Assembly (NCBI GenBank): GCA_023229525.1
Contig: JALNZC010000013.1
Location: forward strand, 17,286-81,285
Source of the DNA: Bacteroidales bacterium
Lineage (GTDB): Bacteria; Bacteroidota; Bacteroidia; Bacteroidales; FEN-979
DNA length: 64,000 nucleotides
Direction of reading: 5' to 3'
A program made the translations under genes and the position numbers. The notes under the pieces are model-generated. The model saw only the letters and a list, made by a program, of their open reading frames with translations, had not been told where the DNA came from and ran no database searches. Shown here piece by piece: positions 20,272-60,736 of this stretch (positions are counted from its first letter, which is position 1; every line of letters begins with the position of its first letter).

Positions 20272-20280
20272 CTTTAAATA

Positions 20281-20312
20281 ATTTGAAGATTTGAGGATTT
20301 GAAAATTTGAAA
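20281..20312. repeat. 8-bp tandem array (ATTTGARR) x4
   Basis: Read as atttgaag atttgagg atttgaaa atttgaaa. Starts 9 nt upstream of the ATPase start codon. Confidence 0.9.
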
Positions 20313-20323
20313 ATTAAACTCAT

Positions 20324-20435
20324 CATTTCACCATTTCACCATCTCACCATCTCACCATCTCACCACCTCACCATCTCACCACCTCACCATCTCACCACCT
20401 CACCATCTCACCATCTCACCACCTCACCATCTACT
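20324..20435. repeat. 8-bp tandem array (CAYYTCAC) x about 14
   Basis: In-phase units are catttcac x2, then catctcac/cacctcac x11, then a degenerate unit. The array begins at the stop codon (20431-20433) of the upstream permease gene. Confidence 0.9.
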
Positions 20436-52282: not shown

Positions 52283-53227
52283 GTGGGTGTATTGAAAAGA
52301 GGGGATTGTTTATTACTATTGTTTGCGTTATTCCTGCCGGTGTCGTTAAGCGGGCAGTACCTCGTACTGAAGGATACCATCTTGCTGGTTCCCCTGAGCA
52401 AACTTGCCGAACCGGAGAAATCTGTTATAAATTTCCGGTTCACACAAGCAATGGAATACTCACTGACTGCTTCCAATCTGCTATTGTCCAATTGGCAACA
52501 GACAGAAAATTCAAATCAATTCACTTTCCTTCAAAACTTTAAATACAGTGCACAATTATTTGATGACCATTTTTTCAAAATAACGAATATCTTTTTACAC
52601 AATCTGGGAATTCAGATATTTTTCGACAGCTTGACAAAAATTGCATTCGACGATAATACCCTTGATACCCGGATCGAATTCAAATTCGGTCGTTCTGTAA
52701 ACCTCACCTTTTTATCGAACCTATCCACCCGATTTTTTAACGGATATGATTATCAATCGGATGGTTCCGGCTCGGTTACACGTACACCCGCTTCTTCATT
52801 TTTAACACCACTTATCTGGACGTTTTCCGGTGGAATAGGGATTCAGGTCCCACGATTCCTTATGTTAAACTTCGGTCTTTCCGCAGCCAGGCTCACCTGG
52901 ATCAGGAACAAAAAACGATTGGAAAGTTCGGGCAGGACAGACTTTTTCGGTGTCCCTAAAGAGAAAGACCATTTGTTTGAATTCGGGCTTAGCATGCATC
53001 TTTTGGTTGATAAAAACCTGGGGAATTGGGGAAACTGGAACTGCGATGTACTGATTTTTAAAAATTACAACAAACCCGTTGATCTGGTTCTGAAAAACCT
53101 GATAGGAATAAAGATCAATAAATTCATAAAAACCTGTGTTCAAACACGGTTGATCTACGAAGAGGATGTCAGCAAAACCCTTCAGATGGAAAACCTGATC
53201 TCGATTGGGTTTAATATCCGCCTTTAA
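52283..53227 (+). CDS. hypothetical outer-membrane-type protein (start uncertain)
   Basis: 314 aa with a hydrophobic N-terminus (LLLLFALFLPVSLSGQ), strand-like alternating sequence and a C-terminal ...IGFNIRL. Confidence 0.45.
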   Translation: MGVLKRGDCLLLLFALFLPVSLSGQYLVLKDTILLVPLSKLAEPEKSVINFRFTQAMEYSLTASNLLLSNWQQTENSNQFTFLQNFKYSAQLFDDHFFKITNIFLHNLGIQIFFDSLTKIAFDDNTLDTRIEFKFGRSVNLTFLSNLSTRFFNGYDYQSDGSGSVTRTPASSFLTPLIWTFSGGIGIQVPRFLMLNFGLSAARLTWIRNKKRLESSGRTDFFGVPKEKDHLFEFGLSMHLLVDKNLGNWGNWNCDVLIFKNYNKPVDLVLKNLIGIKINKFIKTCVQTRLIYEEDVSKTLQMENLISIGFNIRL

Positions 53228-53245
53228 CTGTGAAAAACTTCACAG
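53228..53245 (+). terminator. short hairpin immediately after the stop codon
   Basis: CTGTGAA-AAAC-TTCACAG starts 1 nt after the TAA at 53225-53227. Confidence 0.4.
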
Positions 53246-53296
53246 ACCCTTTCAATTTTAAATGTTTTAAATCAGTAATTTTGCCACCCATATTGG

Positions 53297-53331
53297 GATT
53301 TTAGATTTTAGATTTACGATTTTAGATTTAT
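53297..53331. repeat. 7-bp tandem array (GATTTWM) x5
   Basis: Read in phase as gatttta gatttta gatttac gatttta gatttat. Confidence 0.9.
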
Positions 53332-53371
53332 GCAACAACCTATTGATAGCCACTTGTATGCTACATCTTTT

Positions 53372-53483
53372 ATCCAGCATCCAGCATCCAGCATCCAGTA
53401 TCCAGCATCCTGTATCCCGCATCCTGCATCCTGCATCCCGCATCCTGTATCCAGCATCCAGCATCCGGCATCCAGCATCCTGC
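53372..53483. repeat. 7-bp tandem array (ATCCWGY) x16
   Basis: Sixteen in-phase heptamers (atccagc, atccagt, atcctgt, atcccgc, atcctgc, atccggc variants). The array ends 25 nt before the ATG at 53508. Confidence 0.95.
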
Positions 53484-53507
53484 ATCTGATAACAAACTCG
53501 AACAACA

Positions 53508-56500
53508 ATGTATAAGATCACGAAACATCCGATCCTTGAAATAGCGGAAACCGAAAAAACCATTTTTTTATTTGAAGGACGGGAAATCACAGGCGACAAA
53601 GGTTTTACCATTGCTGCTGCGCTGCACCAGGCCGGGTATCCGGTTCACAGCCATAGCCTGACCAACCGCGAGCGTAGCCTTGAATGCGGCATTGGAAAAT
53701 GCGGTGCCTGCGAGATGCTGGTCGACGGACAGATCAAACGTATCTGTATAACCCGTGTCGACGGGGTGAAGGTAGTAAGTGAGATCCCTTCTGACTATGC
53801 TCCTTCCCCGGTCAATGTGAAAAAAGATATTCCGCTGAATATTTACAAGACATCCGTGGCCATTATCGGTGCGGGTCCGGCAGGACTGGCTGCCCGTGAA
53901 GAACTGAACAAACATCGTATCCCGAATCTGGTCATTGACAATAATGATAAAATCGGCGGTCAATTTAATATGCAGACCCACCAATTTTTCTTTTTTGAGA
54001 AGAAGCAGAAATTCGGTGGGATGAGGGGATTTGATATTGCAAAAATGCTGGCCGGAGATAACCACGAAGGGATTTTCCTGAATTCTACCGTATGGGATAT
54101 CCTCGAAGGAGGACGGATTGCCGTTAAAAATATCCTCACGGACGAAATCTTTTTTGTCGACACGGAGTACCTGATTGTTTCCACCGGGGCGGTTCCTTTC
54201 ATGCCTGCATTTGAAAACGATGATTTGCCGGGCGTTTTTACTGCCGCAGTGGTTCAAAAAATGATGAACAACGAATTGACCCTTCTGGGTAAAAATGTGC
54301 TCACCGTCGGCGCAGGAAATATCGGCTACCTCACCTCGTATCAGCTTATGCAGGCAGGAGCCAGGGTCAAGGCGATCGTAGAAGCCCTGCCTAATGAAGG
54401 CGGTTTCCCGGTGCAGGCTAACCGGGTCAGACGACTTGGCATTCCCATCCTTACTTCGCATATGCTGCTGAAAGCCATACCCAATGAAAAACACGATGGT
54501 ATTATAGGTGCAGTTATTTCCGAATGCAGTGATTTTAAACCTATCCCCGGAACCGAAAAGGTGATTGATGGCATCGATGCCATTAATATCTGCACAGGTC
54601 TGGTTCAGGATGATCAGCTCTTGATTAAAGGGAATGAAATTTTCGGCCGCCGTTGCTTTGGCGCCGGAGATGCAATACGCATTGGCGAAGGTACCAGCGC
54701 CGTTTTGCGTGGCCGGCAGGCAGCCTTCGACGTCCTGCAAGAAATGGGGGAACATTTTGATTATGATGAATTCCTGTCTTTATCAAAAGAATATATTGAT
54801 TCGCAGCAACATCCCATACGCGTAATCCAGGAACCATACCAACCAAGCGCCGAACGGATGCAGGAAAAAGGTTTCGTACTGATCGACTGTCTTTACGGTT
54901 TTGCCTGCAATCCATGCGCGTTTTCCTGTCCCCACGGAGCCATAACCAAATCATCGACCAGTACCGTACCGGAAATCGACTTTGGAAAGTGCATCGGTTG
55001 TATGGATTGTGTTTTCCAATGCCCTGGATTGGCCATATTCGGATATAATCTCAAAAAGGACTGGCTCTTTTTACCCATTGAATATGAAGTTACCGAAAAA
55101 TCGGCATGCTACCTGGTCGATAACAACGGAAATCGACTGGGGGAGGGCATTGTGGAAAAAATCCTGCGTAAGCAAAATAAAACCAACATTGCCCGGGTGA
55201 AGTCACTGACCCTCCACGGTGAAGGTCTTAGCAAGGTCAGCGGGTTCATTGTAAAAGAGAATTTCCCTGATCCCATTGAGTATAAACCGTATAAACAGGA
55301 AACACGGGAATCAACCTACATTTGTCATTGCGACGATGTAACCCTGGATGAAATCCTGGAAACCATCGGAGACCGGAAATTTATTTCGGTAGACGAAGTA
55401 AAACATACCACCCGTCTTGGGATGGGCGCTTGCCGGGGAAAACGATGCATTAAACGTTTAAAATCAATCCTTTACGGTTCAGGAATTTCCATTGTTGGGG
55501 AACCGACACCCCGAGGACCTTTATCGAATCAGGTTTCGATGGGGGAACTTTATCCGCGAACTGTTCACGAAAAGGTGATCACGGGTGTGAACGGGCAAAA
55601 GCCGAAAAAGGTGAAAGTAAAATCATTGATTGCCGGTGGCGGGATCGGGGGAAGCGCTTTATTTCGTTACCTCAGCGAAGCCGGTCAGAAACCGGTACTG
55701 ATCAATTCAGGTCGCGGCGCCTCATGGCGTAACATTGCCGGCGGACGTCCAAATTTTACCCTTCCCGAACTATCAGAAATTGCGGTGCAAAATCATGAGA
55801 TCTTTAAGGATTTGCAGAAAATTCATAATATCGATTACCGGCAGATATTATATGTCACCTTTGCGCATGATGACTCAATGTACAAATCGCTGGCTGATTC
55901 CATGTCTTGGTCAAATGCACGGATGGTGGAGCCCAAAGATTTCAGGAAAGAAATTGCGCCTGGCATCAATCCGGACCTTACTACCTATCAGGCTGCATTT
56001 ATTACCCGCGATTGCTGGCAGGCAACTCCCGGCCGGGTTATCGACCTGATCCGCCGCATAGGAATCAACCGGGGAGGAAAGGTCGAAGAGGATTGTAAGC
56101 TGATCGATGTAAACCAGGTAGAAGACAAATATATTATATTGGTGCAGGATCACCGGAAACAGTTTATAGAATATGAGACAGGGATCTTTATCAATGCGTT
56201 GGGTCCTGAAGGAGAAAAATTTGCCCGGCAATTGAATATCGAAACAGGGCTTTTTCCGGTGAAACACCAGGCTTTCATCACACGCAGGTTACCCATGCTC
56301 GGAAAAGACGGGATGCCTCTTCCCATGCTTATCGATCGCCGTCGCTACAAAGGATTCACGGCAGTATATGGCCAGCAACTGGCTGAAACCGGTCAGATCA
56401 TCGGGTGTGCCTCGCCTGCCATAGAGCCGATGGAGGCAGATAAAAATATAAAAATCAACTCGGAAGATTTTGTGGAAATCGTAGCTGAGATTTTCACGAA

Positions 56501-56741
56501 TTGGATTCCTGATCTCTCTTCCGTCGGATTCCAGGCTGTGTGGGCAGGTTATTATGTGGAACCCCGTATGGTCATTGATACAGAACTTGGACTATTCCTC
56601 GGTTTACGCGGACAGGGATTCATGCTTGGTCAATACCTGGCAAAGATGTATGTCGACCAACTACTGGGAAAAACAGTGCCATCCTATTTCAACAGGCTTA
56701 AACTGAGCGGTGACGGAATGCCGGAGAAAGCGTTTAAGTAA
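53508..56741 (+). CDS. multidomain Fe-S flavoprotein: 2Fe-2S + pyridine-nucleotide-disulfide oxidoreductase + 4Fe-4S ferredoxin + BFD-like 2Fe-2S + DAO-type FAD oxidoreductase
   Basis: 1077 aa. N-terminal CGIGKCGACEMLVDG, a Rossmann motif VAIIGAGPAGLAA with a second VGAGNIGYL, CNPCAFSCP and CIGCMDCVFQCP, CHCDDVT...GMGACRGKRC, and a C-terminal DAO-like GGGIGGSALFRYL. Confidence 0.85.
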   Translation: MYKITKHPILEIAETEKTIFLFEGREITGDKGFTIAAALHQAGYPVHSHSLTNRERSLECGIGKCGACEMLVDGQIKRICITRVDGVKVVSEIPSDYAPSPVNVKKDIPLNIYKTSVAIIGAGPAGLAAREELNKHRIPNLVIDNNDKIGGQFNMQTHQFFFFEKKQKFGGMRGFDIAKMLAGDNHEGIFLNSTVWDILEGGRIAVKNILTDEIFFVDTEYLIVSTGAVPFMPAFENDDLPGVFTAAVVQKMMNNELTLLGKNVLTVGAGNIGYLTSYQLMQAGARVKAIVEALPNEGGFPVQANRVRRLGIPILTSHMLLKAIPNEKHDGIIGAVISECSDFKPIPGTEKVIDGIDAINICTGLVQDDQLLIKGNEIFGRRCFGAGDAIRIGEGTSAVLRGRQAAFDVLQEMGEHFDYDEFLSLSKEYIDSQQHPIRVIQEPYQPSAERMQEKGFVLIDCLYGFACNPCAFSCPHGAITKSSTSTVPEIDFGKCIGCMDCVFQCPGLAIFGYNLKKDWLFLPIEYEVTEKSACYLVDNNGNRLGEGIVEKILRKQNKTNIARVKSLTLHGEGLSKVSGFIVKENFPDPIEYKPYKQETRESTYICHCDDVTLDEILETIGDRKFISVDEVKHTTRLGMGACRGKRCIKRLKSILYGSGISIVGEPTPRGPLSNQVSMGELYPRTVHEKVITGVNGQKPKKVKVKSLIAGGGIGGSALFRYLSEAGQKPVLINSGRGASWRNIAGGRPNFTLPELSEIAVQNHEIFKDLQKIHNIDYRQILYVTFAHDDSMYKSLADSMSWSNARMVEPKDFRKEIAPGINPDLTTYQAAFITRDCWQATPGRVIDLIRRIGINRGGKVEEDCKLIDVNQVEDKYIILVQDHRKQFIEYETGIFINALGPEGEKFARQLNIETGLFPVKHQAFITRRLPMLGKDGMPLPMLIDRRRYKGFTAVYGQQLAETGQIIGCASPAIEPMEADKNIKINSEDFVEIVAEIFTNWIPDLSSVGFQAVWAGYYVEPRMVIDTELGLFLGLRGQGFMLGQYLAKMYVDQLLGKTVPSYFNRLKLSGDGMPEKAFK

Positions 56742-56743
56742 AA

Positions 56744-56881
56744 GATGCAGGATGCAGGATACAGGATGCAGGATTTTGGATGCTAGATGCTGGATACTGG
56801 ATGATGGATACTGGATAACGAACGGTTGTCAGAAAGGATTAACTCTATCCTGTATCCTGTATCCTGTATCCTGTATCCTCT
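56744..56881. repeat. inverted heptamer arrays: (GATRCWG) x11 - 26-nt spacer - (ATCCTGT) x5
   Basis: In-phase units run from 56744 to 56820, and the opposite-orientation array from 56847 to 56881. Together they fill the spacer between convergent stops at 56741 and 56888 and can pair as a long hairpin. Confidence 0.9.
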
Positions 56882-56887
56882 ATAGGT

Positions 56888-57906: not shown

Positions 57907-58437
57907 TTGAATTACGCAGGGCAATATGAAATTTTGTTCAGTGGTTTGAAGCTGGGCAGGTTTACTTTTGATTTTCAAATTGATCAAAAGTTCTTTGAAC
58001 ATTTTGATAATGCCGAAATAAAAGATGGCCGGGTCGGTGTTACTGTCACTATGAACCGGGAAGAGCGCATGATGGACCTTCATTTTGCAATCGAAGGCAC
58101 AGTTAAGGTTCCATGCGACCGATGTAATGAATTGATCGATATCGGCATCGACGGTGAGGAAAGGTTGATTATCAAGCTGGGCGACCGTTATTACGAAGAG
58201 AGTGACAACGTACAGATCATACCTGAAACGGATCAAAAAATTGACCTGGGCCCTTTTATTTATGAGTATATTTACCTGCTGATACCGTTCCGTAAAGTTC
58301 ATCCGGATGATGAATACGGAAACAGTATGTGTGACCCGGAGATAATAATGAAGTTGAAAGAGCTGAGTGAAAGGCACATCCCCGATCCGCGTTGGGAAGC
58401 GCTCAACCAGCTTAAAAATCTAAAATCTAAAATCTAA
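57907..58437 (+). CDS. yceD: YceD/DUF177-family protein, TTG start
   Basis: 176 aa with a Cys pair CDRCNE and a conserved position upstream of rpmF-plsX-fabH. The last approx. 8 codons (LKNLKSKI plus the stop) are encoded by the heptamer array. Confidence 0.75.
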   Translation: MNYAGQYEILFSGLKLGRFTFDFQIDQKFFEHFDNAEIKDGRVGVTVTMNREERMMDLHFAIEGTVKVPCDRCNELIDIGIDGEERLIIKLGDRYYEESDNVQIIPETDQKIDLGPFIYEYIYLLIPFRKVHPDDEYGNSMCDPEIIMKLKELSERHIPDPRWEALNQLKNLKSKI

Positions 58438-58448
58438 AATCGTAAATT
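58414..58448. repeat. 7-bp tandem array (TAAAATC-type) x5
   Basis: Read as aaaaatc taaaatc taaaatc taaaatc gtaaatt. This is the reverse complement of the GATTTWM family at 53297-53331. Confidence 0.9.
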
Positions 58449-60625: not shown

Positions 60626-60715
60626 ATGCCGGATGCTGGATACAGGATACAGGATGCAGGATACTGGATAACAGATTACAGAAAAATCGTAAATCGTAAA
60701 TTGTAAATCGTAAAT
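60625..60715. repeat. 13 in-phase heptamers grading from GATRCWG to CGTAAAT
   Basis: Read as gatgccg gatgctg gatacag gatacag gatgcag gatactg gataaca gattaca gaaaaat cgtaaat cgtaaat tgtaaat cgtaaat. The first unit shares its G with the fabH stop codon. Confidence 0.9.
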
Positions 60716-60736
60716 CAAACTACAATACCTCCCGTC

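Follow-up and report, generated by a model that had tools for sequence, protein, structure and literature searches.

The STRR heptanucleotides of heterocystous cyanobacteria were reportedly described by Mazel and colleagues in 1990. They comprise families of 7-nt units that form tandem arrays over many intergenic sites of one genome. CCCCAGT, TTGGTCA, and CAACAGT are units of this kind.

In the summary of Mrazek, Guo and Shah (2007) that is given in PMC4679880, long simple sequence repeats (LSSRs) have units of 5 to 11 nt, with heptamers as the commonest class. The same summary places them mostly in intergenic regions, describes them as abundant in scattered lineages, and attributes them to polymerase slippage. 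MacGregor (2015; PMC4679880) reported TAACTGA and other heptamer direct repeats from Beggiatoaceae, Cyanobacteria, and five Bacteroidetes; the Bacteroidetes with such repeats, in up to 43 copies, include Flexibacter litoralis, Paludibacter, Gramella, and Aequorivita. The TAACTGA arrays are intergenic, often lie just upstream of start codons, and are mostly in the "forward" orientation, and their patchy phylogeny suggests transfer or blooms (PMC4679880). A functional role has been described for hmw1A/hmw2A of Haemophilus influenzae, where (ATCTTTC)n in the 5' untranslated region (5'-UTR) pairs with a G-rich arm to form a hairpin cut by RNase III, and more copies result in less expression (PMC12721329).

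The locus analyzed here lies at 53297-53483 of a 64-kb stretch of DNA (64,000 nt, the window), in front of a large oxidoreductase gene. Its arrays are most probably part of the 5' leader of this gene and constitute one instance among several hundred in the host genome.

Spacer layout and predicted leader

Analysis of the intergenic spacer and its surroundings revealed the following features.

Up to 53227: upstream DUF3078-like gene, whose stop ends here (Pfam, ORF list)
From the upstream ORF stop (53225-53227) to the ATG at 53508, + strand: intergenic spacer of 280 nt (ORF list)
53228-53245, + strand: palindrome CTGTGAA-AAAC-TTCACAG, straight after the stop of the DUF3078-like gene
53276-53283, + strand: TAATTTTG, a TAnnTTTG -7 box of the Bacteroidetes type, the sole exact box in the spacer
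53297-53331, + strand: array B, five GATTTWM units (GATTTTA three times, GATTTAC, GATTTAT; Tandem Repeats Finder [TRF], unit list)
53332-53371, + strand: non-repeat spacer of 40 nt between the arrays (sequence)
53372-53483, + strand: array A, 16 in-phase ATCCWGY units, 112 nt (TRF, unit list)
53484-53507, + strand: proximal leader ATCTGATAACAAACTCGAACAACA, 24 nt, between array A and the ATG at 53508
53330-53515, + strand: 61-codon open frame through array A, its TAA end overlapping codons 2 and 3 of the main gene
53508-56741, + strand: downstream gene, encoding a 1077-aa multidomain Fe-S flavoenzyme (Pfam: Fer2_4, Pyr_redox_2, Fer4, BFD-like 2Fe-2S, DAO)
56744-56883, no strand assigned: opposed arrays after the gene stop, (GGATRCW) in about 10 copies at 56744-56816 and (ATCCTGT) in 5 copies at 56846-56883 (TRF)

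TRF and cutting of the sequence into units confirmed the arrangement at 53297-53483 that had been described in the sequence-only reading, namely, GATTTWM in five units and, after a spacer of 40 nt, ATCCWGY in 16 units in phase. In array B, the unit order is GATTTTA, GATTTTA, GATTTAC, GATTTTA, GATTTAT, with 4 of 5 units matching GATTTWM; TRF reported it at 53297-53329 with period 7, 4.7 copies, and 84% matches. Array A is a mosaic of ATCCAGC, ATCCAGT, ATCCTGC, ATCCTGT, ATCCCGC, and ATCCGGC, in which 13 of 16 units match ATCCWGY and the exceptions are ATCCCGC (twice) and ATCCGGC (once). It was reported by TRF at 53372-53486 (period 7, 16.4 copies, 86% matches, 0% indels, score of 153). Array A is separated from the ATG at 53508 by 24 nt. 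A blastn-short search with the 42-nt stretch 53330-53371, which holds the 40-nt spacer, revealed no second significant copy in the genome. The 3' half of this spacer (GTATGCTACATCTTTT) looks like a row of putatively decayed ATCCWGY units.

The heptamer units were found, by our own reading of the sequence, to be free of stops in all six frames. The 61-codon frame at 53330-53515 is therefore probably a by-product, and it was set aside as a real upstream ORF. Spurious ORFs created by arrays also include a 54-aa minus-strand "gene" at L001:2807-2971 (-), which was called in this same intergenic spacer on a JGI contig. The NCBIfam search with the 1077-aa flavoenzyme gave partial matches only and no equivalog.

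Other arrays in the window are located at 56744-56883, 58415-58446, and 60631-60716, with 8-mer arrays at 20280-20432. The opposed arrays at 56744-56883 correspond to a predicted long hairpin ahead of the convergent proline dehydrogenase gene (RNA fold of -65.6 kcal/mol, z = -7.65). At 58415-58446 and 60631-60716, reverse-orientation GATTTWM arrays end at a distance of 8 to 21 nt from the start codons of two genes, rpmF and the next gene, on their upstream side. The composite at 60631-60716, directly after the stop of a fabH-like gene, is the reverse complement of the 53297-53483 composite.

A total of 160 orthologous loci were fetched, all from Bacteroidales/Prolixibacteraceae metagenome-assembled genomes (MAGs); 118 had enough upstream sequence for determination of box-to-ATG distances, and 11 sequences were aligned. 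Within the TAnnTTTG box, T, A, and TTTG were invariant across all 11 aligned upstream regions, and the palindrome at 53228-53245 aligned as CTGTGAAnnnnTTAACAG in 10 of them. Kept in relatives, this palindrome marks the ancestral part of the spacer. In the 118 loci, the box nearest to the ATG was positioned 20 to 30 nt (23 loci) or 41 to 64 nt (52 loci) upstream, with a thin tail. In the window, the corresponding distance is 224 nt, compared to the usual 20 to 64 nt. The earlier statement that the stretch from the arrays to the ATG lacks a TAnnTTTG holds; no exact box was found from 53283 down to the ATG. One-mismatch sites in this interval comprise three TAGATTTW (7 of 8 positions of TAnnTTTG), all inside array B.

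Judged by sequence, the box at 53276-53283 is probably the promoter of the oxidoreductase gene, and transcription would start at about 53288-53292. The first array begins about 13 to 14 nt past the box, which corresponds to positions +1 to +7, approximately, of the predicted transcript. The closest relatives with the short form have a spacer in the order stop, CTGTGAAnnnnTTAACAG, GGGAAAAT, TAATTTTG, 7 nt, AAAACTCA..., ATG. The motif AAACTC, contained in ATCTGATAACAAACTCGAACAACA, is found directly 3' of the promoter box in relatives, as revealed by the alignment and the raw upstream sequences; in the window, it has stayed adjacent to the ATG. Because the block sits between the conserved -7 box and the conserved last ~14 nt (AAACTCGAACAACA), the arrays are most probably transcribed. 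The array block, of about 200 nt, was probably inserted between the conserved box and the conserved proximal leader and would thus be transcribed leader; the ancestral leader, of roughly 15 to 55 nt, would have been extended to about 218 nt here. The earlier proposal that the repeats belong to the 5' leader is supported as the most probable one, with the putative promoter box upstream of the block. If transcription started from any of the three TAGATTTW sites, the ATCCWGY array would still lie in the leader. Array B, with its TAGATTTW sites matching at 7 of 8 positions, was considered as a promoter and rejected, since the conserved exact box lies 14 nt upstream and, relative to the next gene, antisense arrays of this family outnumber sense ones (18:33).

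Folding of the leader RNA (53288-53530) gave a minimum free energy (MFE) of -30.9 kcal/mol, compared to a mean of -38.05 for shuffled sequences (z = +1.83); 195 of 200 dinucleotide shuffles folded at least as well. The array block is thus predicted to lengthen the leader and to add no structure to it. A scan of the leader against Rfam revealed no family, and nothing was found in a scan for sigma-70 promoters and terminators.

Arrays in the host genome and in related genomes

The host genome (4.18 Mb, 95 contigs) was analyzed with TRF at periods 7 and 8, and rows were merged. The 495 period-7 and 202 period-8 rows corresponded to 468 and 188 merged arrays, which cover about 41 kb, i.e., approximately 1% of the DNA. 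A third-order Markov simulation of the whole genome yielded 0 period-7 and 2 period-8 rows, and the real arrays are therefore far beyond chance. The main unit families are ATCCWGY (219 arrays), GATTTWM-like (74), GGACGAR (55), TTTTGAS (55), and CTCACCAY (38). By crude ORF calls, about 510 arrays are intergenic; 141 of 489 are anchored -5 to +10 nt from a stop codon, and some lie inside long ORFs that stay open. These results show that the locus at 53297-53483 is ordinary for its genome. As one of about 650 arrays, it lacks the special status implied in the sequence-only reading, and the possibility raised there that such arrays might be confined to this locus clearly does not apply. Neither CCCCAGT, TTGGTCA, and CAACAGT as dimers nor TAACTGA dimers on either strand were found in the genome.

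One of the arrays' host ORFs encodes a 905-aa MurF-type ligase/alanine racemase fusion (L163:138-2852 [-], genome contig C1:101034-103751), which is open through three heptamer array insertions. One of these insertions, an inverted pair, interrupts the Ala_racemase_C domain, which is matched in two separate stretches as a result.

Analysis of array orientation revealed no sign of a strand-specific RNA function of leader arrays. Within 150 nt upstream of starts, ATCCWGY arrays are sense in 45 cases and antisense in 50, genome-wide. The GATTTWM-then-ATCCWGY composite occurs 15 times in the genome, with relative order and orientation fixed in 15 of 15; in our own reading of these 15 contexts, 12 are co-directional, and in 9 of these, including 60631-60716, the composite and the downstream gene have opposite orientations. 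A strand-specific leader function was not supported by these counts. In co-directional spacers, the counts for arrays with more G than C on the sense strand were 117:100 and 59:57, which is not significant. Because these spacers lack a sense-strand G/C bias, Rho loading (rut-like) by C-rich arrays in sense orientation was rejected as a rule of general validity. The G-rich array strand coincides with the locally G-rich strand in a ratio of 232:163 (p = 6e-4), a modest bias that was the sole orientation signal, and genes behave likewise (243:167). The array strand bias being equal to that of genes points to DNA-level processes.

In adjacent inverted array pairs, the 5' arm is almost always rich in purines and the 3' arm in pyrimidines (10:0 for GGATRCW...WGYATCC); the opposite arrangement was seen once. 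Purine-arm-first pairs also occur as GTGAG...CTCAC and GGACGAA...TCGTCC and, in the window, at 56744-56883. At least 8 copies of a cassette with the structure [GATTTAC]n[RATTTGAA]n-ATAAAAAATGATAAAGTAT-[ATCCWGY]n, whose non-repeat spacer is conserved, are dispersed in differing gene contexts, including genome contig positions C21:1-153, C25:84918-85121, C38:5326-5633, C82:46305-46424, C88:1131-1377, C90:117954-118126, and C92:2339-2470. The conserved spacer in these copies indicates that multi-array segments are copied between loci. The block at 53297-53483 was rejected as a copy of this 8-mer cassette: its spacer is unique, and there is only a weak resemblance (GATAG...GTATGCT).

A 15-nt element, GGGAGCGMAGCGACC, is nested between ATCCWGY units (65 matches of GGGAGCGNAGCNAC; e.g., C49:39045-39200, C50:14800-15020, and C38:26620-26730) and gives rise to higher-order periods of 22, 29, 36, and 43 nt (15 + 7n). 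Small dispersed repeats embedded in Nostoc heptamer arrays were reportedly described by Elhai and colleagues in 2008, and the 15-nt element resembles these. The sole RAYT-like Y1 transposase gene of the genome (C21:2302-2721; Pfam Y1_Tnp, E = 2.4e-20) is followed by 3 to 4 tandem repeats of about 98 nt that contain GGGTCGATTAAACCC (gene and repeats, C21:1990-2721), a repeat system separate from the heptamers. A REPtron was rejected as an explanation because the repeats flanking this gene are these unrelated ~98-nt repeats and not heptamers.

Comparison of orthologous loci revealed arrays at the same positions with differing units. In the close clade (38 loci), period-7/8 arrays are present in the leader of 6 loci and, built from many different units and beginning within a few nucleotides of the stop codon, downstream of the gene in 18; for the remaining 85 loci, leader arrays and after-stop arrays number 5 each. 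The leader arrays of the close clade are built from CATCCAG, ATCCAGC, CTTTGTCA, TTTCACTA, or CCTAATG. After the stop of the oxidoreductase gene, TGTGCTGA arrays in register with TAA were found in 26 copies (L003:5732-5940), 16 copies (L021:5732-5860), and 11 copies (L088). The three species that bear them share less than 86% nucleotide identity in the gene, and sister taxa have GGTAAGYT-type units or none at this site, which indicates rapid turnover of units at a fixed position. Unit families are spread throughout a given genome and differ from one genome to the next; TGTGMTRA gave 163, 115, and 84 matches in three relatives and 0 in the host genome.

A search with a pattern of four ATCCWGY units gave 490 matches in the host genome. 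The pattern occurred in 31 of the 90 genomes of the bacterial family, which represented 9 of 13 genera, but the window's own genus contributed just 2 of its 40 genomes. The pattern of four GATTTWM units occurred in 39 of the 90, mainly in that genus. These differing distributions indicate that the composite joins two families with independent histories. At the matching leader position, ATCCAGC arrays of 3.6 to 4.4 copies were identified in two other species (loci L005 and L010). The leader array of the window and those of these two loci do not share one ancestral origin according to the gene tree, in which L010 belongs to a different clade with good support, so that no fewer than two events are required. 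The presence of an ATCCWGY-type unit at this position in three divergent species could hint at a constraint.

Explanations considered for the array block

We consider it likely that the 5' leader contains, in this block, a simple-sequence repeat of the LSSR/STRR type that is prone to slippage and is tolerated, a local instance of growth of 7- and 8-nt arrays across the genome and the clade. The arrays, presumably transcribed at this locus, would grow and shrink by replication slippage or unequal exchange. New sites would be seeded from the existing arrays of the genome via ectopic template switching or gene conversion, and the nearly neutral arrays would survive only where harm is small, i.e., after transcription starts, after stop codons, and in frame in protein loops. 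The block combines a genus-typical GATTTWM array, the unique 40-nt spacer, and an array of the ATCCWGY family, which has bloomed in the host genome. The site probably tolerates the block because the added RNA has little predicted structure and the nucleotides next to the start codon are intact; leader length may have a quantitative effect on expression at most. Purely local slippage leaves unexplained that a few unit families are common to hundreds of loci in one genome, that repertoires are genome specific, that the GATTTWM-ATCCWGY order is fixed (15 of 15), and that paired arrays place the purine arm first. It is improbable, on our assessment, that each family genome propagates its own 7- to 8-nt units in trans by recombination-driven or templated "repeat-writing" at transcript boundaries, directly downstream of start sites and of stop codons. 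If true, such a process would explain the differing units at orthologous sites, the fixed composite order, the purine-first pairs, and the bloom of a unit family in a single species whose genus otherwise lacks it.

Copy-number-dependent tuning of expression, in which slippage in the 5' leader would grade oxidoreductase expression in the manner of a contingency locus such as hmw1A with its (ATCTTTC)n, is consistent with the location of the arrays downstream of the conserved promoter box, with the inverse relation between the length of 5'-UTR heptamer repeats and expression (PMC12721329), and with the copy numbers that differ among species at the orthologous after-stop site (11, 16, and 26). However, the hmw mechanism needs a hairpin with a G-rich partner, and the leader studied here is predicted to be less structured than 195 of 200 shuffles. 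Moreover, the ~650 arrays lie beside housekeeping genes of every kind without orientation preference, unlike a set of contingency genes, and most relatives have no array at the leader site. Such tuning is therefore unlikely. Sense-strand ATCCWGY of the leader might instead pair with the reverse-complement array of the 3' UTR (56744-56816) and loop the mRNA for protection or RNase III processing, and the gene is indeed flanked by complementary arrays of the ATCCWGY family. Nine genes in the genome are flanked on both sides by ATCCWGY arrays, but 4 of these pairs are inverted and 5 direct, as expected by chance, and the 3' array has a nearer partner in its predicted local hairpin of -65.6 kcal/mol; pairing between the two ends of the mRNA is very unlikely.

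A dedicated trans-acting system, i.e., a mobile-element enzyme or templated addition at transcript boundaries that writes or moves units, would make the composite a deposited cassette. The genome-specific repertoires at orthologous sites, the order and orientation fixed in 15 of 15 composites, the conserved-spacer cassette in at least 8 copies, the 15-nt element nested in arrays, and the placement of 141 of 489 arrays at -5 to +10 nt from stop codons all fit such a system. Nevertheless, inspection of the block revealed no recognizable terminal inverted repeats or target site duplication, and the block, in view of its unique 40-nt spacer, does not duplicate the dispersed cassette exactly. The only Y1 transposase (RAYT-like) gene has ~98-nt repeats beside it that are unrelated to the heptamers, neither an enzyme nor a template was identified as a candidate, and a simpler account of these observations is ectopic recombination among the arrays already present. 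We regard this system as quite unlikely. An origin of the arrays or their copy numbers as artifacts of short-read metagenome assembly is the least probable of these explanations. Arrays do disturb assembly, as 14 of 190 contig ends lie in arrays, and just one further contig, JGI 3300037067, spans the whole locus; it shows identity over 9,234 nt and may represent the same assembly. Apart from this contig and a short Logan contig, the contig search gave no others, so that a same-species contig of another assembly history was not found, and in the metagenome scan no match exceeded 85% amino acid identity. Yet the mosaic of variant units in the 112-nt array A provides unique k-mers and makes the array resolvable by them; the copy number given here is that of the assembly. 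An independent Logan contig (SRR18595301) runs into the array after the neighboring proline dehydrogenase gene and stops there. In addition, the complete 5.3-Mb MAG chromosome OY820914.1 carries ATCCAGC in 4.4 copies at the matching leader position and has 83 overlapping three-copy pattern matches genome-wide, with ATCCAGC at about 30 further distinct sites among the matches listed, and ATCCWGY is found in 31 of 90 related genomes.

Comparison with known systems

With a repeat block of roughly 200 nt placed between promoter and start region, both of them conserved, the locus is a clean natural case for testing how far the length and composition of a leader matter in Bacteroidota, in which translation starts without Shine-Dalgarno pairing. 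The 90 related genomes, with independent patchy blooms and arrays turning over at orthologous sites, provide a comparative system for a question that has stood since the discovery of STRRs, namely, how identical short arrays reach hundreds of sites in one genome. In practical terms, such arrays break short-read assemblies and create spurious ORFs.

Comparison with mobile repeats revealed differences. Unlike in REP, BIME, and REPIN elements, self-complementarity is lacking in the units, no hairpin is predicted for the leader block, and the single RAYT-like gene has unrelated repeats at its flanks. Unlike a MITE, the block has no inverted termini and no clear duplication at CCCATA/TTGG and TGATAAC/AAACTC, as judged by inspection against the short-form relatives.

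In hmw1A, the heptamer array lies between promoter and start codon and is transcribed with the leader; the arrays studied here lie downstream of the conserved -7 box, and their transcription is predicted. Unlike in hmw1A, the leader is predicted to form no 5'-UTR hairpin (MFE of -30.9 kcal/mol, z = +1.83). H. influenzae hmw1A is nonetheless the closest functional precedent for a transcribed leader heptamer array.

With the TAACTGA repeats, the arrays have in common their intergenic location, their heptamer units, their patchy distribution, and Bacteroidetes hosts. They differ in that tandem TAACTGA is absent and the host arrays have no preferred orientation to the downstream start. The sequence-only reading knew of no described equivalent in Bacteroidota; this statement has to be corrected in view of the heptamer arrays described in five Bacteroidetes (PMC4679880).

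Like STRRs, the arrays comprise few heptamer families dispersed over many loci (ATCCWGY, 219; GATTTWM class, 74). Unlike STRRs, they belong to a different phylum and have different units, the three STRR units named above showing no dimers in the host genome, which adds 8-nt families and in-frame arrays inside essential genes. In common with LSSRs, they are head-to-tail 7-nt arrays beyond chance length, and the agreement extends to both unit size (TRF) and excess over chance (Markov simulation). In contrast to LSSRs, the load of the host genome is extreme (~650 arrays, 1%), with few families over hundreds of loci; the genome has fixed composites and inverted pairs, and repertoires differ between sister species at orthologous sites. 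Taken together, the arrays fall within the LSSR definition and behave like STRRs, and they are of a kind already described in bacteria, including Bacteroidetes.
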